DNA from: Thermoanaerobaculia bacterium
GTDB taxonomy: Bacteria > Acidobacteriota > Thermoanaerobaculia > UBA5066
DNA: 64,000 nucleotides
Direction of reading: 5' to 3'
Assembly: GCA_963816185.1 (NCBI GenBank)
Contig: CAWFJJ010000006.1
Coordinates: 1,326 to 65,325, forward strand
Part shown: positions 2,884 to 32,522 of the stretch, piece after piece
Layout of the letters: the number at the start of each line of letters is the position of its first letter
How positions within the stretch are numbered: the stretch's first letter is position 1
Notes under the pieces: model-generated
Told to the model about the DNA's origin: nothing
Database searches by the model: none
The model's input: only the letters and a program-made list of their open reading frames with translations
Program-made: the position numbers and the translations under genes

Positions 2884-5133
2884 TTATTTCGCGGCGAACT
2901 CGGGGTCCCCGGCGACGCGCAGGAAGAAGGCCCACACGTCGGCAATCTGGGCTACGGCCTGGTCGCGTGTCGAGCCCATGCCGTGCCCCGCGTCGGGGTC
3001 GATCCGGATCAGCACCGGCTTGCCGCTCTCCGTCGCCGCTTGCAGACGTGCCGCCATCTTGGCCGTCATCCACGGCGCGACCCGACGGTCGTTGAGTCCG
3101 ATCGTGAAGACGACCGCCGGATACGCCCCGCGAGGCGCCACGTGCTGGTACGGATCGACCTCGAGGATCGACTTGAAGCCGGCTTCCGCGTCCGGGTCTC
3201 CAAACTCCATCTTCTGGTTCGCGCCGTTCTCGGCGGCCAGGAGGCGCAGAGGGTTGACCATACCCACGGCGATGTGGGCGCCTGCGAACAGGTCGGGCCG
3301 CTCCGTGATCGCGCGGCCGACCAGAACCCCGCCGGCGCTGCCCCCTTGAGCGAAAAGGCGCGACGGAGTCGTCAGCTTCCTGGCGACGAGGTACTCGCCG
3401 CAGGCGATGAAGTCGCGGATGCCGTTCATCTTCTTCTCGTGGCTCCCGTCGACGTGCCAGCGTTCGCCTTTCTCGCCGCCGCCGCGCACGTGAGCCACCG
3501 CGAGAACGCCGCCGCGTTCGAGCCACGCCAGGAAGGAGGGGCGGAAGAACGGCGTCGCGGAGATGCCGTAGGCGCCGTACCCATGAAGGATCGCCGGGTG
3601 CGAGCCGTCGAGGACGAGGTCCTTGCGGTGCAGGATCGACAGCGGCACGTGCGCGCCGTCAGGGCTGACCGCCTCCACTTCCTCGGCGGCAATCTGCGAA
3701 AAGTCGGCGACCGAGGTGCTGCCGATGCCGATCGCCCGGACCTGCTTCGTTTCGGGACCGTAGGCGAAATAGGTACCGGGTCGAGTCCACGTCGTGAGGT
3801 CGAAGCTCGCACCGTCGCGGAGCGCGTCCGTCGCCAGGTCGTCGATCCACCCGTCCGCCGGAAGCGCGAGCGCCGCGGCGGTCTTCGCCTTCCAGGCGAG
3901 GCGCCAGAGCTGCGCGCGACCGTTCGCCATCTTCCGGACGTAGAGCGCGTCGCGCGCCGGCGCGATCGTGTCGATGGTCGCGTTCGGGTCCTCGGCGATC
4001 TCGACGCGTGCCTTGGCGAGATCCGGGTTCTCGAGCGGCACCGAAACGAGTCGCCGGTTCGAGGCGCCCTTGTAGGTGAGAAGGTAGAGGCGGCCGCCAT
4101 GGACGACGGCGGCCTCGACGTCGTCGTCGTAGTTCGCAACCGGACGCCATGCTGTCTTCGCGCTGCCGCTGCGGTCCAGATCCGCGATCGCGGCGACGGC
4201 GAACCGGCTGTTGCTGTGGGCGCCTCCAGCGGATGCGACGAGCCAGCGCGAATCGGGCGAGGCGGAAACACCCGGGAACTCGTCCGGCGCGATTTTCATG
4301 GTCTGCGAGTCGCCGCCTTCGAGGATCAGGACATCCTTCTCGACGGGTTCGCCAAGAACATGGAGCCGCACTTTCATGTTGAGCATCGGATCGGCGCCCG
4401 ATGCCGGCGCGGCCATTTGCGTGTAGAAAAAGCCTTTGCCGTCGGGCAGCCACTCCGCCGGAAACTCGCCCCAGATCCGCTCGACGACGTCGGGAAGCTG
4501 CTTCCCGCTGTCGACGTCGATCACGTGGATCGCGCAGACTTCGCTCCCGCCGGTCGAGAGGTTGTAGGCCACGCGTGCACCGTCGGGCGACGGCGCGTAG
4601 CTGTTGAGCGAGGCATGCGTGTCCTTGCCGCCGAGCGCAGCAGGGTCGACAAGAACCTTCATCTTCGCATCGGCGTCGCGGACGGAAAGCTTGGGAAGCT
4701 GCTCCCCGGCGGCGAGAGCCAAATAGAAGGCTCGCCCGCCGGCGAGCTGCATGGAGGATGCCGTCGACGTGTCGCTCGCGAGGTGGCGCACACGTTCGAA
4801 CAGCTTCGTACGGCCGGGGACGCCCGCGAGGAACGTAGTGGTGTATGCACCCTGCGCGCGGAGCCAACCCTCGAGCTCCGGGTTCTTGGCGCCCTCCATC
4901 CAACGGTACGGGTCGACCACCTTCACGCCGAAGCGCTCCTCGACGACATCCGTCTTTCGCGCCACCGGGAGAGTCGCATGGGGCGCAACCGCGGACGGCA
5001 CGGCCTGCCGCTCTTTCGTCGTCGGCGTCGTGAGGGCCGTGGGCGACGGCTGGCCGAAGCCGGCCCGCGCGAGGAACAAGATCGTCCAGGTCAGAAGCAC
5101 GAGGCGAACCGTTCGGGTCGTCATGTGACGCAT
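2884..5133 (-). CDS. prolyl oligopeptidase family S9A serine peptidase, secreted
   Basis: 749 aa; signal peptide; N-terminal beta-propeller (VDPYRWMEG); C-terminal catalytic domain with HGYGAYGIS, GGSAGG (nucleophile Ser) and a C-terminal GHG. Confidence 0.85.
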   Translation of the reverse strand: MRHMTTRTVRLVLLTWTILFLARAGFGQPSPTALTTPTTKERQAVPSAVAPHATLPVARKTDVVEERFGVKVVDPYRWMEGAKNPELEGWLRAQGAYTTTFLAGVPGRTKLFERVRHLASDTSTASSMQLAGGRAFYLALAAGEQLPKLSVRDADAKMKVLVDPAALGGKDTHASLNSYAPSPDGARVAYNLSTGGSEVCAIHVIDVDSGKQLPDVVERIWGEFPAEWLPDGKGFFYTQMAAPASGADPMLNMKVRLHVLGEPVEKDVLILEGGDSQTMKIAPDEFPGVSASPDSRWLVASAGGAHSNSRFAVAAIADLDRSGSAKTAWRPVANYDDDVEAAVVHGGRLYLLTYKGASNRRLVSVPLENPDLAKARVEIAEDPNATIDTIAPARDALYVRKMANGRAQLWRLAWKAKTAAALALPADGWIDDLATDALRDGASFDLTTWTRPGTYFAYGPETKQVRAIGIGSTSVADFSQIAAEEVEAVSPDGAHVPLSILHRKDLVLDGSHPAILHGYGAYGISATPFFRPSFLAWLERGGVLAVAHVRGGGEKGERWHVDGSHEKKMNGIRDFIACGEYLVARKLTTPSRLFAQGGSAGGVLVGRAITERPDLFAGAHIAVGMVNPLRLLAAENGANQKMEFGDPDAEAGFKSILEVDPYQHVAPRGAYPAVVFTIGLNDRRVAPWMTAKMAARLQAATESGKPVLIRIDPDAGHGMGSTRDQAVAQIADVWAFFLRVAGDPEFAAK

Positions 5134-10264: not shown

Positions 10265-11466
10265 ATGGACGAGGCGCCGTTCCTCCCGAGCGACCCGCCG
10301 CCCTTCGCGGCCCGGAGCCTCGCATGGCTCCTGATCGCCCTCTTCGCAGTGGCCGCTGTCGTATCGGTGGCGGTCAAGGTTCCCGAAACGGTCGTCGCCC
10401 CGTTCGCCCTTGTGCCCATGCGCGGCACCGATCCGGTTCGCGCTCCGCACGGAGGCACGGTCACGGAGGCTCTTGCCGTCGAGGGGCGCCCCGTGGCCAA
10501 GGGCGCGAGGCTCTTTGCCATCCGGTCGCAGGAGTTCGGGGACAGGGCCTCCGAGCGGAAGGCGCTCGAAGCAGGCCTCGGCGGACTTGCCGAGAGCCTT
10601 TCCAACGCCCGGAAGAGATTCGACAGCGAGGCCGGCGAGAGGCGTGAGGAGGCCCGGAGTCTCGCCGATCGCGCGGCCTATCTCGATCGGATGCTGGCTT
10701 TGAAGAGGGAGCAGCTCGCCTTGACGCTGGAGCAGTCCGAGCGGGCGAAGAAGCTCGCCGACCAGGGGCTCGCGAGCTTCAACGACCGTTCCGACGCCCA
10801 GATCCGGCACAGCCAGACCGTCATGGAGCTCGAGCAGCTCCAGTCCGACCGGAGCGCGACCGGGAGCGCCATCGAGAAGCTTCGCGACACCGAAGCGGCG
10901 AAGGGGACCGAGTTCCACGAGGAGGAGCGGGTCCTCGAGGAGAAGATCGCTCAGGCGAGAATCAGGATCGGCGCGCTCAGCGGGGGGCGCCCTCCGCCGG
11001 CGGAGACGAATCTGGAAACGAGCTGGCCGTCACTTCTCCGTGCGACGGCACCGTTCTCGGCGTCACGGCGCGGCGGGCCGGGGCGGTGGTCCGCGAAGGC
11101 GACGTCCTCGCCGAGGTCGCCTGCTCCGCCGAGACCCTGCAGGCCGAGCTGAGCCTCCCGCAGGGAGGGCTCTCCCGGATCCACCCCGGCCAGAGCGTCC
11201 GCCTCCTCCTCGACGCGTTCCCGTACCAGCGCTACGGCGTCCGCGGGGGAAGGGTCCGGTGGGCCAGCCCCTCCGGGGTCGGGACCCGCGAGGCCGCGAC
11301 CTTCCCCGTCCTCGTCGACCTGGACGAGCAGGCCGTCCCGGCGGACGGCGAGCGCAAGCCGCTCCTGGCGGGAATGCGCGGCACCGCGCGCGTCGTCGTC
11401 GGCCGCCGCACGCTCGTCGAGTACGCCTTCGAGCCTCTCCGGCAGCTTCGGGAGAACCTCCGGTGA
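10265..11466 (+). CDS. HlyD-family membrane fusion/secretion adaptor; interrupted by a -1 frameshift at the G6 run 10981-10986
   Basis: ATG abuts the ABC stop (TAGATG). N-terminal TM plus coiled-coil in frame A (10265..~10985). C-terminal HlyD barrel (GNELAVTSPCDGTVLGV..GQSVRLLLDAFPYQRYG) in the frame of ORF 11086..11466. Adding one G to the G6 run restores a continuous protein (..IGALSGGAPSAGGDESGNELAV..). Confidence 0.75.
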
Positions 11467-11532
11467 CGCGGAAGAGCTTCGCTCGACGCGACGCAACTCA
11501 CGCTCGAGACCTTCCGGAGCGCCGACGCCGCG

Positions 11533-12438
11533 ATGCGCCGCTGCCTCGACGTGGCGCGTGCCGCCTGCCGGACCGAGCTTCCGCTCCTCCTCCTCGGCGA
11601 GTCGGGGACCGGAAAGACGCTCCTCGCCCAGGCGATCCACAACTCCTCTCCGAGAGCGTCGGCTCCCTTCGTCTCCTTCAACGCCGCGGCCCTCTCCGAC
11701 ACGCTCCTCGACAGCCAGCTCTTCGGCCACGAGAAAGGGGCGTTCACGGACGCCAAGCAGCCGCTGCGCGGCAAGTTCGAGGTCGCCGACGGCGGGACCC
11801 TCTTCATCGACGAGATCGCCGACATGAGCCCGCTCGCCCAGGCGAAGATCCTCCGGGCGGTCGAATACGGAGAGTTCGAGAGGCTCGGATCCGAGCGGCT
11901 CCGCAAGGCGGACGTCCGCCTGATCTCGGCCACCCGCCACCCGCTGGAGCGGTTTGCGAACACCGAGCAGTTCCGGAGCGATCTCTTCTACAGGCTCGCG
12001 GGGCTCACCGTCACCCTTCCCCCGCTGCGCGAGCGGCCGAACGACCTGCGCGAGCTCGTCGCGGCCTCGATCCATCGCGCCGCTCACGCACAGGGACGGA
12101 CCATCTCCGGTCTCTCCCAGAAGGCCGCCGATGCCCTTTTCTCGTATCACTGGCCCGGGAATCTCCGGGAGCTCGACCTCGTCATCCACGCCGCAGTCGC
12201 GATGACCGAGGGCTCGGTGATCGAGGAATTTGCGATCCTGGTCCGAAACAACGGCGGGCCCGGGACGTCCCCTTCCGCCGCGCGGCCGGTCCCTGCGGCC
12301 GACCTGAGCCTCCGGGCCGTCGAGCGAGACCACATTCACCGGGTCCTCCGGGAGCTCGGGGGGAACAAGACGAGGGCCGCCAGGACCCTCGGCATCTCGC
12401 GCTCCCGCCTCGAGAGGAAGCTCAACGACGCGAAGTGA
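11533..12438 (+). CDS. sigma-54-dependent transcriptional activator (bEBP), AAA+ central domain + Fis-type HTH, no N-terminal receiver/sensor domain
   Basis: Walker A GESGTGKT; GAFTGA-like region EKGAFTDA; R-finger/ESELFGH-like motifs; C-terminal HTH (KTRAARTLGISRSRLERKL). No in-frame start codon exists between the HlyD stop and ATG 11533, so the protein starts at the AAA+ domain, PspF-like. Confidence 0.85.
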   Translation: MRRCLDVARAACRTELPLLLLGESGTGKTLLAQAIHNSSPRASAPFVSFNAAALSDTLLDSQLFGHEKGAFTDAKQPLRGKFEVADGGTLFIDEIADMSPLAQAKILRAVEYGEFERLGSERLRKADVRLISATRHPLERFANTEQFRSDLFYRLAGLTVTLPPLRERPNDLRELVAASIHRAAHAQGRTISGLSQKAADALFSYHWPGNLRELDLVIHAAVAMTEGSVIEEFAILVRNNGGPGTSPSAARPVPAADLSLRAVERDHIHRVLRELGGNKTRAARTLGISRSRLERKLNDAK

Positions 12439-12573
12439 CCGGGCACGGGCGACGGCGACCGCGACAATGAGCCTCGGAACGAGCTACTCGAAACGATGCA
12501 GCAACGCATCGAAACGATACAGCCCGGGTCCGGAATTCACCGCCATCGCGCGCCTGAGACTGTTTCTCAGCGG

Positions 12574-12589
12574 TGGAACGGTCCTTGCT
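12574..12589 (+). promoter_or_regulatory. candidate sigma-54 (-24/-12) promoter TGGAACGGTCCTTGCT
   Basis: Matches TGGCACG-N4-TTGCW at 11 of 12 fixed positions with exact GG/GC spacing; lies 135 bp downstream of the bEBP gene and ~40 bp upstream of the first RBS of the precursor array; a 6-bp-stem inverted repeat (CTGAGActgttTCTCAG) sits immediately upstream. Confidence 0.5.
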
Positions 12590-12630
12590 CCGCCCGGGCC
12601 CGGTCCCGAATTCGAGAAAGGAGAAACGAC

Positions 12631-12912
12631 GTGAACCACGAAGAAAACCCCCTCGGGCTTCTACAAGAAGGCGGTGAAGGACCTCGACGTCAAGCCCGCC
12701 AAGGTGACGTCCGCCCGGGCGTCCAGTCTCGAACCGGCCGTCAGCGACCGCGAAGAAGGCGAAGAACCGATCATGAAGAAGACCCCGAAGAAAAGCGCCC
12801 GGACAAGCTTCTCAAAGAAGACGCGGTCAAGGACCTCGCACCAAGCTCCGCCAAGGGCAGGCGGCACGAGGCGGCACGGGAAGGTCTGTGACAGGGGTGG
12901 ATCGAGCATCTG
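12631..12912 (+). pseudogene. two decayed precursor-peptide gene copies at the head of the array (frame-disrupted)
   Basis: The DNA is clearly homologous to intact precursor genes, with the same RBS AGGAGAAACGAC then GTG, and AAGGCGGTGAAGGACCTCGACGTCAAGCCCGCCAAG. Small indels break the frame: copy 1 reads VNHEENPLG..; copy 2 from ATG 12773 reads MKKTPKKSA then out of frame; the leader-like KEDAVKDLAPSSAKG reappears in another frame. Confidence 0.5.
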
Positions 12913-13190
12913 ACGAGCGACCTCCAGCTCGGCAAGGTTCTCGTCCGAGAGATTCCTGTCACTGCGACATGAAGACGGGCCGCCGCAAGACGAAGCCGTC
13001 GCCGGGGTTCGTCCCCCTCAGGGACCTCGTCCCCCGAAACGACCCCAAGGGCGGGTCGGCCGGGAAGACGGTATTCGGTGAACGTCCCCCGATCGCTCGA
13101 GACAGAAGAAAAGCACCCCTTCAAGGATGTTCCGGCCGAACGAAGGCAGAAGCCGGGTCACGACCGAAACAGGAAGAAAGGAGAAACGCC
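12913..13190 (+). repeat. intergenic array repeat, copy R1 (divergent 5' part)
   Basis: Shares ~200 nt with the other copies (ATGAAGACGGGCCGCCG..GGTATTCGGTGAACGTCCCC..CCGGCCGAACGAAGGCAGAAGCCGGGTCACGACCGAAACAGGAAG) ending in the RBS of P1. Confidence 0.7.
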
Positions 13191-13376
13191 ATGAAGAAGA
13201 CCACGAAGAAAAGCTCCTCGAAGGCCTCTCACAAGAGAGCCCGCAAAAACCTCGACGTCACGCCTGCCAAGGGCGGGACCGTCCGGGGAGGCGGCAAGGC
13301 GGGCTCGGGCAGGACTACTGTCAGCGACCTCCAGATCAGCAAAGTTGTCGACAAGAGTTCAGCCGTGCTGTTCTGA
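13191..13376 (+). CDS. precursor peptide P1 (61 aa); leader MKKTTKKSSSKASHKRARKNLDVTPAKGGTVRGG + core GKAGSGRTTVSDLQISKVVDKSSAVLF
   Basis: Strong RBS AGGAGAAACGCC-ATG; conserved leader shared with 14 other genes; long Ser/Thr-rich core; stop 23 nt before the CxxCxxCC-1 start. Confidence 0.7.
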   Translation: MKKTTKKSSSKASHKRARKNLDVTPAKGGTVRGGGKAGSGRTTVSDLQISKVVDKSSAVLF

Positions 13377-13399
13377 GAGCGACCTGCTCGAAGACTGGC

Positions 13400-14542
13400 A
13401 TGGTACGGCTTCCGACGATCCCGGACACTCCCGCCAAAGGCCCGGCTCCGCTCCATGCACGCTGGCTCGAAGAGGCCCTCGGGGGAAAGATCCCCTCCGA
13501 GCCCCACGCCACGTGCGAGAGCTGCCCCATGCTCCCTGTGCCCGGCGGCGCGGACGGGGCCCGGGACGCGGTCTTCTTCAATCCCAAGACGAAGTGCTGC
13601 ACCTACCTGCCGAGGCTTCACAACTTTCTCGTCGGCGCGATCCTGGCAGACGAGGCGCCCGACATGGCCGAAGGGCAGGCGCGCGTTCTCGAGAGGATCG
13701 GAAAAAGGGTCGGCGTGACGCCGCTTTGGGTCGGCGCCGGTGGAGCGTACAGCCTCATGTACGACCACGGTGACGGGGTCTTCGGCCACAGCGAGGCGAT
13801 GCGCTGCCCCTACTACCTCGAGGATCGGATCGGCGGCGGCTGCGGGATATGGCGTCACCGCAATTCCATCTGCATGACCTGGTTCTGCAAGCACGAGCGC
13901 GGGGCCCGGGCGCTGCGGTTCTGGGACTCGGCCAAAGAGCTGCTGATGGCCGTCGAGGAGAACCTCGCGATCCACTGCCTCGTCACCCTCGGTTTCGACG
14001 ACGCGGCGCTCCGGACCAATTTCCCGTTCAAGGTTCCGAAGTCTCAGCGGACGGAAACCGTGAAGGGGGACGAGCTCGACGGCACGGTGAGCCCCGAGAG
14101 GTACAAGGCCCTCTGGGGAAGCTGGGCTGGCCGCGAGAAGGAGCTCTACCTCCTAAGCGACGGGATCGTCCGGAACATGGAGTGGAAGGACGTCGAGCGA
14201 ATCGGCGGCGCGAACGTCGCTCTCCTCTCGCAGCTCGCACGCGCTGCCTACCAGACGGCAGCCAGCGACGCTCTTCCGGAGCGCCTCGAAATCGGCAACC
14301 TCAACGTCATCGGCGCCGGGCGTAAGACCGTGCGCCTCGGCACCTACAGCCCATACGACCCCATCGATGCTCCTGCCGCGCTTCTTCCGGCATTGCCCGC
14401 CTTCGACGGCTCCAGGGTACCCGACGCCCTCCGCGCGATCGAGAAGGATCATGGGCTCGTCCTGAGCCCCGAGCTCGTCCGAAAGCTCGTCGACTACGGC
14501 CTGCTCCGCGCGGTGACCGCCCCCGAAGACGAGCGAGTCTAA
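13400..14542 (+). CDS. CxxCxxCC-motif protein (YkgJ / PF03692-like, family that includes flagellin lysine N-methylase FliB), paralog 1; candidate peptide-modifying enzyme
   Basis: 380 aa from ATG 13400 (the ORF-track start at 13127 is upstream repeat read-through). Motifs CESCPMLP..KTKCCTYLPRLHNF and CPYYLEDRIGGGCGIWRHRNSICMTWFCKHE match the recalled Cx2Cx..CC plus C..CxIY..RP..CR.FPF pattern of the family. 85-90% identical to paralog 2. Confidence 0.7.
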   Translation: MVRLPTIPDTPAKGPAPLHARWLEEALGGKIPSEPHATCESCPMLPVPGGADGARDAVFFNPKTKCCTYLPRLHNFLVGAILADEAPDMAEGQARVLERIGKRVGVTPLWVGAGGAYSLMYDHGDGVFGHSEAMRCPYYLEDRIGGGCGIWRHRNSICMTWFCKHERGARALRFWDSAKELLMAVEENLAIHCLVTLGFDDAALRTNFPFKVPKSQRTETVKGDELDGTVSPERYKALWGSWAGREKELYLLSDGIVRNMEWKDVERIGGANVALLSQLARAAYQTAASDALPERLEIGNLNVIGAGRKTVRLGTYSPYDPIDAPAALLPALPAFDGSRVPDALRAIEKDHGLVLSPELVRKLVDYGLLRAVTAPEDERV

Positions 14543-14605
14543 CCAGAACTCGATGAGAAGGCCGAAGCCGGGTCATGAACAAATCAGGGCAAAAGGAGAA
14601 ACGAC

Positions 14606-14737
14606 GTGAAGAAGACCACGAAGAAAAGCCCCTCGAAGGCATCTCACAAGAAGGCGGTCAAGAACCTCGAGCTCAAAACGGTTAAGAGCGGGACGGTCCG
14701 AGGAGGAGTACCCGCGGTCCAAAAGTCAGGGAGATAG
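14606..14737 (+). CDS. precursor peptide P2 (43 aa); leader VKKTTKKSPSKASHKKAVKNLELKTVKSGTVRGG + core VPAVQKSGR
   Basis: GTG start after AAAAGGAGAAACGAC; conserved leader; preceded by a truncated array repeat. Confidence 0.65.
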   Translation: MKKTTKKSPSKASHKKAVKNLELKTVKSGTVRGGVPAVQKSGR

Positions 14738-14747
14738 GAGGAGCAAC

Positions 14748-14885
14748 ATGAAAAAGATCGCGAAGAAGGGCGCCCCGAAGGCCTCTCACAAGAAATCGGT
14801 CAAGGACCTCGAGATCAAGCCCGCCAAGGGCGGGACGGGCGAGACGGTCCGTGGCGGCAAGATGATCGACAAGATCCACATCTGA
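14748..14885 (+). CDS. precursor peptide P3 (45 aa); leader MKKIAKKGAPKASHKKSVKDLEIKPAKGGTGETVRGG + core KMIDKIHI
   Basis: RBS GGAGGAGCAAC-ATG 10 nt after the P2 stop; core of the K..KIHI type. Confidence 0.7.
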   Translation: MKKIAKKGAPKASHKKSVKDLEIKPAKGGTGETVRGGKMIDKIHI

Positions 14886-15145
14886 CGAGCGCCGCCTGCT
14901 GCAAGGATCGCCCGACCTTCGATGATGAAGACAGGCCGCCGAGGACCAAGCCGTCGCCGGGGGTTCGTCCTCCTCAGAGATCTCATCCCTCGAAACGACC
15001 CCAAAGGCGGGTCGGCCGGGAAAACGGTATTCGGTGAACGTCCCACGGTCCTCGAGACAGAAGAAAAGCACCCCCATGAGGATGTTCCGGCCGAACGAAG
15101 GCAGACGCCGGGTCACGGCCGAAACAGGAGGAAAGGAGACACGAT
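14886..15145 (+). repeat. intergenic array repeat, full copy R2
   Basis: ~260 nt starting at TCTGACGAGCGCCGCCTGCTGCAAGG..ATGATGAAGACAGGCCGCCGAGGACCAAGCCGTCGCCGGGGG.. and ending in RBS AGGAGACACGAT before P4; contains the spurious 75-aa ORF 14922..15149. Confidence 0.75.
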
Positions 15146-15286
15146 ATGAAGAAGACCACGAAGAAGACCCCGAAGGCCTCGCACAAGAAGGCGGTCAGGA
15201 ACCTCGACGTCAAGCCCGCGAAGGGTGGAACGGTCCGTGGCGGAATACATGGTGGCTGGGACCAGCTCGCGAACAAGAAAGTTTGA
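15146..15286 (+). CDS. precursor peptide P4 (46 aa); leader MKKTTKKTPKASHKKAVRNLDVKPAKGGTVRGG + core IHGGWDQLANKKV
   Basis: Conserved RBS and leader; core of the HGGWDQ type shared with P13 and P14. Confidence 0.7.
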   Translation: MKKTTKKTPKASHKKAVRNLDVKPAKGGTVRGGIHGGWDQLANKKV

Positions 15287-15373
15287 GTTCCTGGAACACC
15301 CTTCTTAGAAAGTCCGGTCGAACGAAGGTAGAAGCCGGGTCACGACCGAAACAGGAAGTAAGGAGAAGACGTC

Positions 15374-15520
15374 ATGAACAACCCCAAGAAGAAGAGCGCC
15401 TCGAAGGCCTCCCACAAGAGGAAGGTGAAGGACCTCGAGATCAAGCCCGCCAAAGGAGGGACCGTCCGTGGAGGCAAGGTCTTTCCCAAGGTGACCACGG
15501 GTTTGCTCGACAAGTACTAG
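15374..15520 (+). CDS. precursor peptide P5 (48 aa); leader MNNPKKKSASKASHKRKVKDLEIKPAKGGTVRGG + core KVFPKVTTGLLDKY
   Basis: RBS AAGGAGAAGACGTC-ATG; MNNPKKK leader variant shared with P7. Confidence 0.7.
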   Translation: MNNPKKKSASKASHKRKVKDLEIKPAKGGTVRGGKVFPKVTTGLLDKY

Positions 15521-15596
15521 CGAGGCTGAAGTTACCCCTTTCGTCGCGCGACCTCGCGCTCGGTCACGACCGAAACAGGAAGAAGGGAGACACGAC

Positions 15597-15734
15597 ATGA
15601 AGAAGAACGCGAAGAAGAACCCTCCGAAGGGTTCCCGAAAGAACGCAATCAAGGACCTCGAGATCAAGCCCGCCAAGGGCGGGACGGACGGGACGGTCCG
15701 TGGCGGCAAGTTCGAGACCAAGATCCACATCTGA
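15597..15734 (+). CDS. precursor peptide P6 (45 aa); leader MKKNAKKNPPKGSRKNAIKDLEIKPAKGGTDGTVRGG + core KFETKIHI
   Basis: RBS GGGAGACACGAC-ATG; K..KIHI-type core; followed by full repeat R3. Confidence 0.7.
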   Translation: MKKNAKKNPPKGSRKNAIKDLEIKPAKGGTDGTVRGGKFETKIHI

Positions 15735-15996
15735 CGAGGGCCGCTTGCCGTAAGGGCCGATCGGCCCCTCGATGATGAAGACAGTCCGCCGAGGACCAAG
15801 CCTTCGCCAGGGATTCGTTCCCCTCAGGGACCTCGTGCCCTGAAACGACCCCAAGGGGGGGTCCGCTGGGAAGACGGTATTCGGCGAACGTCCCCCGGTT
15901 TCCGTGACAGAAATGACACAGCGCTTCCAGGATGTTCCGGCCGCACGAAGGCAGAAGCCGGGTCACGGTCGAAACAGTAAGTAAGGAGAAGACGTC
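15735..15996 (+). repeat. intergenic array repeat, full copy R3
   Basis: Same unit as R2 with point differences and single-base indels. Confidence 0.75.
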
Positions 15997-16128
15997 ATGA
16001 ACAACCCCAAGAAGAAGAGCGCCTCGAAGGCTTCCCACAAGAAGACGGTCAAGAACCTCGAGGTCACGCCCGTCAAGGGCGGGAAGGTCCGTGGGGGCTT
16101 CCCGACGCCATGGAAAAACAAGGTCTAA
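15997..16128 (+). CDS. precursor peptide P7 (43 aa); leader MNNPKKKSASKASHKKTVKNLEVTPVKGGKVRGG + core FPTPWKNKV
   Basis: RBS TAAGGAGAAGACGTC-ATG; conserved leader. Confidence 0.7.
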   Translation: MNNPKKKSASKASHKKTVKNLEVTPVKGGKVRGGFPTPWKNKV

Positions 16129-16174
16129 TGCCGCCCGAAATGACGCGCGAATCCAGAAGAAAGGAGAAACGAAC

Positions 16175-16306
16175 ATGAAAAAGACCTCGAAGAAGAGCGC
16201 CTCGAAGGCATCTCACAAGAAGGCGGTCAAGGACCTCGAGGTCAAGCACGCCAAGAGCGGGACGGTTCGCGGAGGACTGCCCCCCGGTCCACCAACCTAC
16301 AAATGA
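16175..16306 (+). CDS. precursor peptide P8 (43 aa); leader MKKTSKKSASKASHKKAVKDLEVKHAKSGTVRGG + core LPPGPPTYK
   Basis: RBS AAAGGAGAAACGAAC-ATG; Pro-rich core. Confidence 0.7.
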   Translation: MKKTSKKSASKASHKKAVKDLEVKHAKSGTVRGGLPPGPPTYK

Positions 16307-16327
16307 GTGGACAAAATGAGAACCGAC

Positions 16328-16453
16328 ATGAAGAAGACCACGAAGAAAGACCCTTCGAAGGCCTCTAAGAAGAAGGCGGTCAAAAACCTCGAGGTCAAGC
16401 CCGCGAGGGGTGGAACGGTCCGCGGAGGCTGGGACCCGACCAAAGCGCGATAG
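16328..16453 (+). CDS. precursor peptide P9 (41 aa); leader MKKTTKKDPSKASKKKAVKNLEVKPARGGTVRGG + core WDPTKAR
   Basis: Starts 21 nt after P8 with a weak SD, probably coupled; an in-frame alternative ATG at 16316 would add MRTD. Confidence 0.6.
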   Translation: MKKTTKKDPSKASKKKAVKNLEVKPARGGTVRGGWDPTKAR

Positions 16454-16725
16454 CGTCGAAACGAGTCACTCGAAACGACCCCTTCTCCGAAAGTGAACCG
16501 CGAGATGAAGACAGGCCGCGGTAAGACAAAGCCCTCGCCGGGGTTCGTCCCCCTCAGGGACCTCATCCCCCGAAACGATCCCAAGGGCGGGTCGGCCGGG
16601 AAGACGGTATTCGGCGAGCGTCCCCCGGTCCTCGAGGCAGAAGAAAAGCACCCCTTCAAGGATGTTCCGGCCGAACGAAGGCAAAAGCCGGGTCACGACC
16701 GAAACAGGAAGAGAGGAGAGACGAC
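16454..16725 (+). repeat. intergenic array repeat, full copy R4
   Basis: Same unit; contains the spurious ORF 16493..16729. Confidence 0.75.
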
Positions 16726-16914
16726 ATGAAGAAGAACACGAAGAAGACAGCCTCCAAGGCAAAGGGGCCCAAGGCGACGAAGAATCTCGACGTCAAGCCC
16801 GCCAAGGGCGCGAAGGTCCGTGGTGGAACTGTAAACAAGGGGTGGATCGAAGTTTCATCCTTCAGTTTTAATGCGGAACCCACCGTCAGTGTGACCGCGA
16901 AGAAGCCGTCCTGA
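16726..16914 (+). CDS. precursor peptide P10 (62 aa); leader MKKNTKKTASKAKGPKATKNLDVKPAKGAKVRGG + core TVNKGWIEVSSFSFNAEPTVSVTAKKPS
   Basis: Matches ORF-track 16726..16914; long Ser/Thr-rich core; its stop overlaps the GT41 gene start (TGATG). Confidence 0.7.
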   Translation: MKKNTKKTASKAKGPKATKNLDVKPAKGAKVRGGTVNKGWIEVSSFSFNAEPTVSVTAKKPS

Positions 16915-30935: not shown

Positions 30936-31091
30936 GGGGCGGACTTTTCGCCTCGGGATCAAGCAGCTGAATGTCCGTCCTCTATGAACTGCCTCCGCGT
31001 ACCCTTCCAGCGACAGTGCCGTGGCATAGGTGTTGCTGCGCCCTGTCATGGGTCCCGTTCGGCGTGAACCAAGACCCAGCGGAGGTATGAG

Positions 31092-32522
31092 ATGGCATAC
31101 CGAATGGCCCGGCAGGTCTGTGTCTTAGCGGCTATGTCAGGAAGTCCGCTTCTCTTGATGGCTCAGGAGCAGGGGCCGGCAGCAGAGGCTTCCGGGAACG
31201 AGGCATCGGTCCAGTCGCAAAATCTGGCCCCGGAGCAACTCGCCGACCTGGTCGCGCCCATCGCGCTGTATCCCGATCCGCTTCTGAGTCAGGTCCTGGT
31301 CGCGAGCACCTACCCGTTGGAGGTCGTCGAGGCGCAGCAGTGGCTGCAACGGAATAGACGTCTGAGGGGCCGGCAGCTGATGGACGCAGCCCAGGAGCAG
31401 AACTGGGACGCCAGCGTTCAGGGACTGGTGGCCTTTCCGGACGTGCTGGACACGCTGAACCAGGACGTCCAATGGACCACGGCATTGGGCAATGCCTTCC
31501 TCGCGCAGCAAGCGGACGTCATGAACGCGGTGCAGCGACTGCGCGCACGGGCGCAGGCGAACGGTACGCTCTCCTCCACCCGGGAGCAGACGGTTACCAC
31601 CGAGACGCCGGGCGAGCAGTCGGTCATAGAGATCGTGCCGGCCGATCCGCAGGTGATTTACGTGCCGGAATACGATCCAGACTCCATCTGGGGACCCCCG
31701 GAGTGGGGCACCTATCCGCCGCTGGATTACGTCAGCTACGGCTTCGGTTTCGGTCCGGCGATTGACATCGGATTTTGCTTCGGCGGGTGGAACGGCTGGG
31801 GCTGGCGCGGCTGGGGTTGGGGCTGGGGCCCGAACTGGTTTGGCGGCTCGGTGTTCGTCAACGGAGCGTTCTTCCGACATCATGGTTTCCACGGCCGGTT
31901 CCTGGCCGGCGGGTTTGCCGGCAGGAGGGTGTGGCGGCACGATCCAGGCCACCGGTCGGGAGTCTCGTACCCGAACGCTCGACTGGCAGCCCGGTATCAG
32001 TCTGCCTCGCTGGCTTCCCGGAGCACGATGGCAAGGCCGGAAAGCTTCAATTCGGCCCGATCGGCCGGCACGGGAAGCTGGAACCGGCTCGGGCCTGGGA
32101 CCGCGTCGACACGCGGAAGCCGACCGGTCACGCAGGGCGTTCGCGCCGCGACACCGCGGAGCACACGGCGCACAACCGAGGAAGCGTGGCGACGCTCTCC
32201 CGGTGCGCAACGCGAGCAGGTTCCCGTGCAGCGTTACTCGGCTCCGATGCGGCGCTATTCGGCCCCGGTGCGGCAGTACTCGGCTCCGGTGCAGCGGTAT
32301 TCGGCTCCGATCCAGCGGTATTCGGCTCCGGTGCAGCGGTATTCGGCTCCGGTCCAGCGCTACCCTTCTTCTACGCCGCGAGTGTCCCCGACGGGAAGTG
32401 GCGGGCGCAGCTTCGGCGGCGGTGCCGGCTCATACGGCTCAAGCCGTGGCGGAGGCGTGAGCAGCACGGGCGGCGGCCATGCCTCCGGTGGCGGCTCACA
32501 CGTTGGCGGCCACCGCCGGTGA
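31092..32522 (+). CDS. DUF3300-domain secreted protein with Gly/Trp-rich low-complexity region and 7x RYSAPVQ tandem repeat
   Basis: [32 protein letters not shown] matches DUF3300; signal peptide; repeats at ~32229..32362. Confidence 0.6.

Follow-up and report, generated by a model that had tools for sequence, protein, structure and literature searches.

The phage-shock activator PspF of E. coli has just an AAA+ domain and, at its C-terminus, a helix-turn-helix (HTH), with no N-terminal sensory domain, and its -24/-12 promoter adjoins its own gene. HrpR and HrpS of Pseudomonas syringae are likewise receiver-less and control a horizontally acquired, secretion-linked gene set; these two paralogues act together, and HrpV restrains them. 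Here we describe a locus that invites comparison with both, found in a stretch of 64,000 nucleotides from a Thermoanaerobaculia bacterium of the Acidobacteriota (contig CAWFJJ010000006.1 of assembly GCA_963816185.1; the whole stretch is called the window below). In it, a predicted receiver-less activator of sigma-54 RNA polymerase, that is, a bacterial enhancer-binding protein (bEBP), is encoded between a peptide exporter and a long array of genes for peptides with double-glycine (GG) leaders, and a -24/-12 element stands before the array. An earlier note, made from the letters of the window alone, had called the activator PspF/HrpRS-like, which is right for its architecture; the PspF equivalog cut-offs were missed, however (TIGR02974, 251 bits vs. 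443.55; NF008622, 216.9 vs. 529), and there is a single activator rather than a pair.

Structures of PspF are among the nearest solved relatives of the window activator (E about 3e-54), together with those of NifA, ZraR and NtrC1. Unlike that of PspF, the gene of the window activator closes an exporter operon, to which it is translationally coupled, and the predicted target of the activator is a peptide array and not an envelope-stress operon. Unlike the HrpR/HrpS pair, the activator stands alone: translated in six frames, the window yields only one GAFTGA-like motif. Neither a PspA-type inhibitor nor an HrpV-like gene was recognized among the 19 open reading frames (ORFs) scanned against Pfam, which are a subset of those in the window and include its neighbors. 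DVU2106, a single-component activator of Desulfovibrio vulgaris, shares with the window protein the loop sequence GAFTDA, but its targets are related to cell division and not to peptide export (PMC4641369).

Peptide and natural product clusters provide the other comparison. In Myxococcus, enhancer-binding proteins and -24/-12 promoters directly govern polyketide synthase and nonribosomal peptide synthetase genes; those activators are encoded elsewhere, whereas the window has a dedicated activator inside a ribosomal-peptide export cassette, and ribosomally synthesized peptides that are post-translationally modified (RiPPs) are not discussed in that paper (PMC7910581). Regulators that depend on sigma-54 are reported to be statistically over-represented in the gene clusters of Acidobacteriota (PMC13642348). 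For the exporter and the adaptor, the nearest named models are those of the NHLP/Nif11 export systems, with which the window shares multi-copy GG-leader precursors, but the scores remain below the cut-offs (TIGR03796, the top NCBIfam model for the exporter, 527 bits vs. 853.3; TIGR03794, 37 vs. 156.2) and the leaders match no NCBIfam precursor family. Class II bacteriocins are under three-component regulation, in which an inducer peptide, a histidine kinase and a phosphorylated response regulator act on housekeeping-sigma promoters. They have in common with the window the GG-leader peptides, a C39-ABC transporter with an accessory protein, and a cluster-encoded regulator; unlike them, the window locus has no kinase and no receiver domain, and its promoter is of the sigma-54 type. 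Neither this cassette nor the control of ribosomal peptide arrays by sigma-54 was described in the literature searched. The earlier statement that such control of RiPP precursors is uncommon holds for the literature but not for metagenomes, in which loci of this kind are common (17 in our comparison).

We consider it probable, at roughly 80%, that the window carries a dedicated sigma-54 regulatory module within a cassette for peptide export and production. The domain content, the position and spacing of the promoter motif, the synteny, and the conservation of promoter and repeats over 17 loci are what the sequences show of it. The genes discussed here are all on the + strand of a region of 66% G+C. 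They follow one another as a PpiC-related protein, an exporter with cNMP-binding, C39 peptidase and ABC domains, a HlyD-type adaptor and the activator, and then, past a spacer of 193 nt, an 8.3-kb array of small-peptide genes that includes three larger genes (Table 1). Related loci were collected by looking up homologues of the activator and by scanning metagenomes with the PpiC-related protein, which gave 16 besides the window (L001, L002, L083, L085, L086, L089, L095, L098, L102, L103, L108, L127, L133 and L145-L147). They are gene clusters from uncultured soil bacteria; homologues of the activator are annotated in metagenome bins of Gemmatimonadota and Methylomirabilota, and the cassette is found in Acidobacteriota.

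All 17 loci contain the PpiC-related protein, the cNMP-C39-ABC exporter, a receiver-less activator, a -24/-12 element and GG-leader peptide genes, and usually HlyD, which is missing from L085. The association of a receiver-less activator with the -24/-12 promoter of a peptide array, as the earlier note had it, is thus borne out by the Pfam domains, the lengths of homologues, the synteny and the conservation of the promoter. By predicted gene content, the exporter-plus-regulator part is constant and the cargo variable. One regulator-exporter cassette serves chemistries as disparate as LanB with LanC (L083 and L086), YcaO with a flavoprotein-LanC (L002), a GT41 glycosyltransferase with a Cys-rich, uncharacterized protein (about 380 aa; the window, L001 and L089), or no recognized modification enzyme at all (L145-L147).

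The annotated ORF of the activator (301 aa, ATG start) matches Pfam Sigma54_activat from its first residue (PF00158; E=2.7e-58, profile positions 8-167 of 168), as well as AAA_lid_14 and HTH_8, and Walker A (GESGTGKT) and Walker B (FIDE, in TLFIDE) motifs are legible in its translation. The 120 best homologues are all between 299 and 362 aa long, which leaves no room for a receiver domain; across the cassette loci the activator has 310-340 aa and is receiver-less. An exact look-up of the 301-aa sequence gave no entry. No NCBIfam equivalog cut-off was reached by the protein, and a scan of the genome collection with back-translated activator patterns returned, among the matches listed, only unrelated activators of at most 44% identity.

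The closest homologues (83-92% identity, 322-324 aa) share an N-terminus of the form M/LTR(D/E)SF.DA..LTLESFRSADAAM, and the orthologues begin 23 codons upstream of the annotated ATG, at a GTG that overlaps the HlyD stop. This GTG is present in the window, where the overlap reads GTGA and a Shine-Dalgarno sequence, GGGAG, lies 8 nt upstream. The intact activator gene of L001 (89% identity) has the identical GTGA, and HlyD stop and activator start also overlap in L002, L145 and L147. Judged by these alignments, the apparent start of the ORF directly at the AAA+ domain is a frameshift artefact. The earlier claim that no alternative start exists back to the HlyD stop is correct within the frame, with no ATG, GTG or TTG between the TGA at 11464-11466 and position 11533, but it overlooks the native GTG, which is frameshifted here.

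The promoter element, TGGAAC-N5-TTGCT, had been placed at the right coordinates and with the exact GG/GC spacing. Its GG (12575-76) and GC (12587-88) have the canonical 12-nt offset, and TGGAACGGTCCTTGCT departs from TGGCAC-N5-TTGCW at only one of the 12 specified positions. A transcription start is predicted near 12600, and a Shine-Dalgarno GGAG (12620-12623) and a GTG (12631) follow. This ribosome-binding site is 30 nt from the -12 element, instead of the approximately 40 bp given before; the site, described earlier as the first of the array, does exist but precedes a decayed peptide gene.

The case for the promoter is carried by position and conservation. GG and TTGC are invariant at 17/17 sites, with diverged spacers and flanks, and in the 15 loci that retain the element past the activator stop it is found 53-224 nt from that stop. 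Counterparts in the equivalent position are TGGAATggcccTTGCT in L001, TGGCCCgtcgaTTGCT in L083, TGGCCGggcgaTTGCT in L086, TGGCTCgacggTTGCT in L098 and TGGCACacacaTTGCA in L085, and others were found in L089, L095, L133, L102/103/108, L127, L145-147 and L002. On a weighted consensus score of our own making (maximum 20.5), which is a heuristic and no trained matrix, 12 of the 14 loci tested had a best + strand site of at least 18 in the 250 nt past the activator stop; of 2210 background windows drawn from these loci, 1.4% scored as high. In the two exceptions the element is elsewhere, beside the peptide genes: L089 has TGGAACagtacTTGCT at 18119, where enhancer and promoter sit together as a block behind the GT41 gene, and the inverted array of L002 is headed by TGGCAGcggtcTTGCA at 4364 on the minus strand. 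In L145, L146 and L147, the first peptide gene is preceded by TGGTCC-N5-TTGCT or TGGAAT-N5-TTGCC, which score 17.0-17.5 and so fall just short of the threshold of 18. Several of the related arrays have more than one -24/-12 element (three identical copies in L083, several in L147 and L002).

Upstream of the element, three direct TCGAAACGA repeats, TCGGAACGAGCTAC at 12474, TCGAAACGATGCAG at 12488 and TCGAAACGATACAG at 12509, follow one another at spacings of 14 and 21 bp and lie 100, 86 and 65 bp before the -24 element; two of the matches, 21 bp apart, are exact. All three recur in L001 and L089, and pairs spaced by about 21 bp (in L095, by 20 bp) are found in L086 and L095 and, by eye, also in L083 and L098. 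The repeat motif is present upstream in 14/17 loci as against 11.5% of background windows, and the pair in 5/17 as against 0.16%. These tandem repeats are a likely enhancer and the best candidate for the binding site of the activator, in line with the earlier proposal that the activator binds the upstream region containing CGAAACGA. The block CTGAGActgttTCTCAG, with the inverted repeat CTGAGA-ctgtt-TCTCAG, is kept only in the clade of the window, L001 and L089 and not in more distant loci.

The following sequence of events would account for this arrangement. The activator gene ends the exporter operon (PpiC-related protein, exporter, HlyD, activator), and its GTG start overlaps the HlyD stop, so that activator and exporter would be produced together. 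The HTH of the activator would bind the tandem repeats, and the protein would spend ATP to remodel the closed complex of sigma-54 RNA polymerase at the -24/-12 element, from which one long transcript might run over the whole 8.3-kb array. A single transcript is suggested by the absence from the array of a second -24/-12 element, a sigma-70 consensus and an intrinsic terminator. Between 12600 and 21000 there is no site scoring at least 17 and no GG-N9-TGC in the leader or intergenic repeats; nine loose matches to GG-N9-TGC are confined to the three large enzyme genes and lack TTGC. The only match to the sigma-70 consensus is at 21152, downstream of the array, and no convincing terminator was seen on the + strand of the array. 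The earlier note was correct on both counts here, namely that no comparable element occurs within the internal repeats and that the downstream genes would depend on read-through or other promoters, with which the sequence is consistent.

That the activator gene comes at the end of the exporter operon, translationally coupled to it, suggests that no peptides would be made until the export machinery is under production. Sigma-54 promoters are silent without an activator, which would make a tight switch for possibly toxic peptides. Our preferred guess is that control comes through the amount of activator, set by how much the exporter operon is transcribed, rather than through the external partner that the earlier note took it to need. 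In practical terms, supplying the cognate activator of 320-340 aa in a sigma-54 host would be a testable way to wake silent ribosomal-peptide clusters of uncultured Acidobacteriota. Autoregulation of the exporter operon through a second -24/-12 element was considered and rejected, since a scan of 13 loci at a threshold of 18 found no site ahead of the PpiC-related gene.

Table 1. Features of the cassette and the peptide array, in window coordinates
Feature	Position	Strand	Basis or remark
PpiC-related protein, about 333 aa	6099..7100	+	Leads the conserved cassette; orthologues likewise placed in L001, L083, L085, L086
Exporter, 1060 aa	7082..10264	+	Pfam cNMP_binding (two), Peptidase_C39, ABC_membrane, ABC_tran
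HlyD-type adaptor	10265..11466	+	Two frames, split by 1-nt deletion near 10984
Receiver-less sigma-54 activator (bEBP)	11463..12438	+	Native start GTG 11463; ORF as annotated 11533-12438
L1-loop motif GAFTDA (GAFTGA variant)	11737..11754	+	Six-frame scan
C-terminal Fis-type HTH, HTH_8	12307..12426	+	Pfam E=2e-11, residues 259-298 of the 301-aa ORF
Candidate enhancer (upstream activating sequence), three direct TCGAAACGA repeats	12474..12522	+	Repeat conservation
Block CTGAGActgttTCTCAG with inverted repeat	12554..12570	+	Immediately upstream of the -24 element; three-way alignment
Predicted sigma-54 -24/-12 element TGGAAC-GGTCC-TTGCT (TGGAACGGTCCTTGCT)	12574..12589	+	Consensus match, position, conservation
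Two decayed peptide-gene copies	12631-12772 and 12773-12913	+	Read against repeat family D4 and L001's first precursor, which is intact
Peptide array	12969..20910	+	ORF list, repeat families, leader-motif scan
GG-leader peptide genes (starts)	13191, 14606, 14748, 15146, 15374, 15597, 15997, 16175, 16328, 16726, 18607, 18777, 19169, 19394, 20779	+	
D1 peptide gene, six copies	12969-13190, 14922-15149, 15772-15993, 16505-16729, 18383-18610, 18945-19172	+	
Two paralogous Cys-rich proteins, about 380 aa	13400-14542 and 19577-20782	+	Hypothetical
Enhancer remnant in the array, TCGAAACGAGTCAC then TCGAAACGACCCC	16456..16483	+	No -24/-12 element after it
TPR and GT41 glycosyltransferase	16914-18386	+	Pfam Glyco_transf_41, TPR

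Several points weigh against a working sigma-54 module in this genome. The loci compared are phylogenetically related and so not fully independent, and the promoter score is home-made. No RpoN box was found within the 64-kb window. The stretch from 12438 to 12574 holds no terminator, so that transcription reading through from the exporter operon might add to expression of the array. The loop of the activator reads GAFTDA and not GAFTGA, and for VfmH the effect of this G-to-D change on the sigma-54 contact was called unknown (PMC10714721). Finally, the first seven codons of the activator are out of frame with the remainder, the HlyD gene is broken by a deletion, and the first two peptide genes past the promoter are decayed and out of frame with the leader consensus.

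The last of these points bear on the alternative that survives best, which we nevertheless hold to be unlikely: a module real by descent but dead here, with genuine frameshifts, decayed first peptide genes, and an array that is silent or an eroding relic. By tblastn and DNA alignment, the GTG at 11463 encodes VTRKSF, after which a 1-nt insertion near 11481 (codon 7) shifts into the frame of LDATQLTLETFRSADAAM. Residues 1-243 of the intact 400-aa HlyD of L001 align by tblastn with frame 2 of the window and residues 242-400 with frame 1, and the DNA alignment confirmed a 1-nt deletion in a run of six G near 10984. Relative to L001 there are then two single-base indels within 500 nt. The array itself bears traces of repeated duplication and decay, namely the two decayed leader copies, an enhancer remnant at 16456 that has no promoter and repeats the layout of the first two repeats of the L089 enhancer, and a fragment of the GT41 C-terminus at the array end (20979-21095); the D1 copy at 15772 has in-frame stops. 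Yet the genes for the exporter, the PpiC-related protein, the GT41 protein and both 380-aa proteins, along with 15 peptide genes, are each intact in a single frame and share 79-91% identity with L001 (91% for the exporter), and the cassette genes other than HlyD and the activator align in single frames. A run of six G is a typical site of long-read error, and the Flye-style contig names in related records point to long-read assemblies. Even if the insertion in the activator gene is real, a restart at ATG 11533 would cost only the first 7 positions of the AAA+ profile. The indels are either assembly errors or true inactivating mutations, and the module is accordingly either inactive in this genome or wrong at two bases of the assembly. 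In both cases the activator is still receiver-less.

A bolder alternative concerns the peptides themselves. The array encodes 15 intact GG-leader peptides with the leader MKK..K(N/D)L(D/E)VKPAKGG.VRGG, and its earliest intact genes are the D1 copy at 12969 and the precursor at 13191. D1 is a 225-nt repeat of 87% mean column identity that encodes a conserved peptide of about 75 aa (MKTGRR..FV.LRDLVPRNDPKGG-SAGKTVFGERPP...), of which the motif L.DL.PR...KGG-.GK.(V/L)FG(E/Q) was found in nearly all related loci. The gene occurs in L001, L002, L083, L085, L086, L089, L095, L098, L102-105, L133, L145 and L147, and it is the first past the sigma-54 promoter in L086, L089, L095, L098 and L127. No NCBIfam family was matched by the leaders or by the D1 peptide, and a homology search with D1 gave only 15 relatives, close and unnamed. 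A known RNA was considered for the repeat and rejected, as a search of Rfam over 11000-22000 gave nothing meaningful and the repeat is a conserved peptide gene. Conceivably, the cassette, from the PpiC-related protein to the activator and with the enhancer, the -24/-12 promoter and D1, is a self-contained, portable platform for peptide production. D1, or leader fragments released by the C39 peptidase in the cytoplasm, would then replace the missing sensor and feed back on the activator, giving a peptide-gated sigma-54 circuit that drives hypervariable cargo, including the Hcp-like fragments described below. We regard this as improbable, and as less probable than a dead module.

Much further down the scale stands the possibility that the -24/-12 match is fortuitous and that the array is served by read-through from the exporter operon or by unrecognized housekeeping-sigma promoters. 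The open path from the exporter operon would permit this, and sigma-70-type promoters of the lineage may differ from the E. coli consensus. Matches to TGGCACN5TTGCW with at most one mismatch number 3 in the window, all intergenic and aimed at + strand genes, where 0.55 were expected and 0/100 shuffles reached 3; with at most two mismatches, however, there are 17 against 13.2 expected, which is no enrichment, and for this reason the motif alone is weak evidence. A chance match would not be expected to keep GG and TTGC in every locus, to exceed the background of high scores as it does past the activator stop, to move with the peptide genes when these are inverted (L002) or displaced (L089), and to be repeated before sub-arrays in L083, L147 and L002.

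A regulator of the bEBP type may also work without sigma-54, as TyrR and the NtrC of Rhodobacter do. The loop motif is GAFTGA in 98 of the 120 best homologues and GAFTDA in 10, among them all five of the closest homologues read (P0002-P0005 and P0009). In 12 of the 17 loci compared it is GAFTGA, each time next to the same type of promoter. The GAFTDA loci are the window, L001 and L089, and all three keep the -24/-12 element, with TGGAAY as the -24 sequence (L146 likewise has TGGAAT), and the enhancer, which argues for retained function. In a survey of D. vulgaris activators, GAFTDA was among the variants expected to keep activity, and DVU2106, which bears it, has assigned sigma-54 targets (PMC4641369). 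That the window activator is a conventional, sigma-54-independent activator or repressor, as the G-to-D change in the contact loop of its clade and the failure of a pull-down with the GAFTDA protein VfmH to yield RpoN (PMC10714721) might be taken to indicate, is accordingly very doubtful beside the intact promoters and enhancers of the GAFTDA loci and the prevalence of GAFTGA at the same kind of promoter.

Of the remaining proteins of the cassette, the PpiC-related one has a weak match to Pfam Rotamase_2 and a weak match, under the cut-off, to NCBIfam TIGR04500, "putative peptide maturation system protein" (E=2.6e-7). The HlyD protein of L001 matches TIGR01843 type_I_hlyD (E=2.6e-38), also below the cut-off (132.1 bits vs. 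208.65). The Cys-rich proteins match nothing in Pfam or NCBIfam. Unnamed relatives in their family number in the hundreds, and JGI labels a few of these "Fe-S-cluster containing protein"; the family is presumably the peptide-modifying enzyme of this cluster type.

The cores of some GG-leader peptides resemble successive fragments of Hcp, the tube protein of the type VI secretion system (T6SS). Such cores were seen in the window at 13191-13376, 16726-16914, 15146-15286, 19169-19312 and 19394-19537, in L089 at 18379-18552 and 18605-18766, and in L001 at 13394-13573, 13625-13762 and 16030-16194. Pfam T6SS_HCP was the top match for three separate peptides, at profile positions 2-20 (E=0.027), 36-67 (E=1.1e-3) and 40-70 (E=9.6e-4). 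When three cores were artificially strung together in the order of Hcp, the score was 52.9 bits (E=6e-14, over profile positions 2-67 of 129), which exceeds the cut-off of 23.5. Cores such as VHGGWDQIANKKI may match the Hcp C-terminus. We know of no described peptide family made of Hcp fragments in this way.

Two further near-consensus -24/-12 elements are found in the window, both intergenic and correctly oriented: TGGCAGcgtacTTGCT at 22564-22579, about 60 nt before a cytidylate-kinase-like gene starting at 22638, and TGGCATaggtgTTGCT at 31022-31037, about 55 nt before an ORF starting at 31093. Their presence suggests that the organism uses sigma-54, and does so widely.

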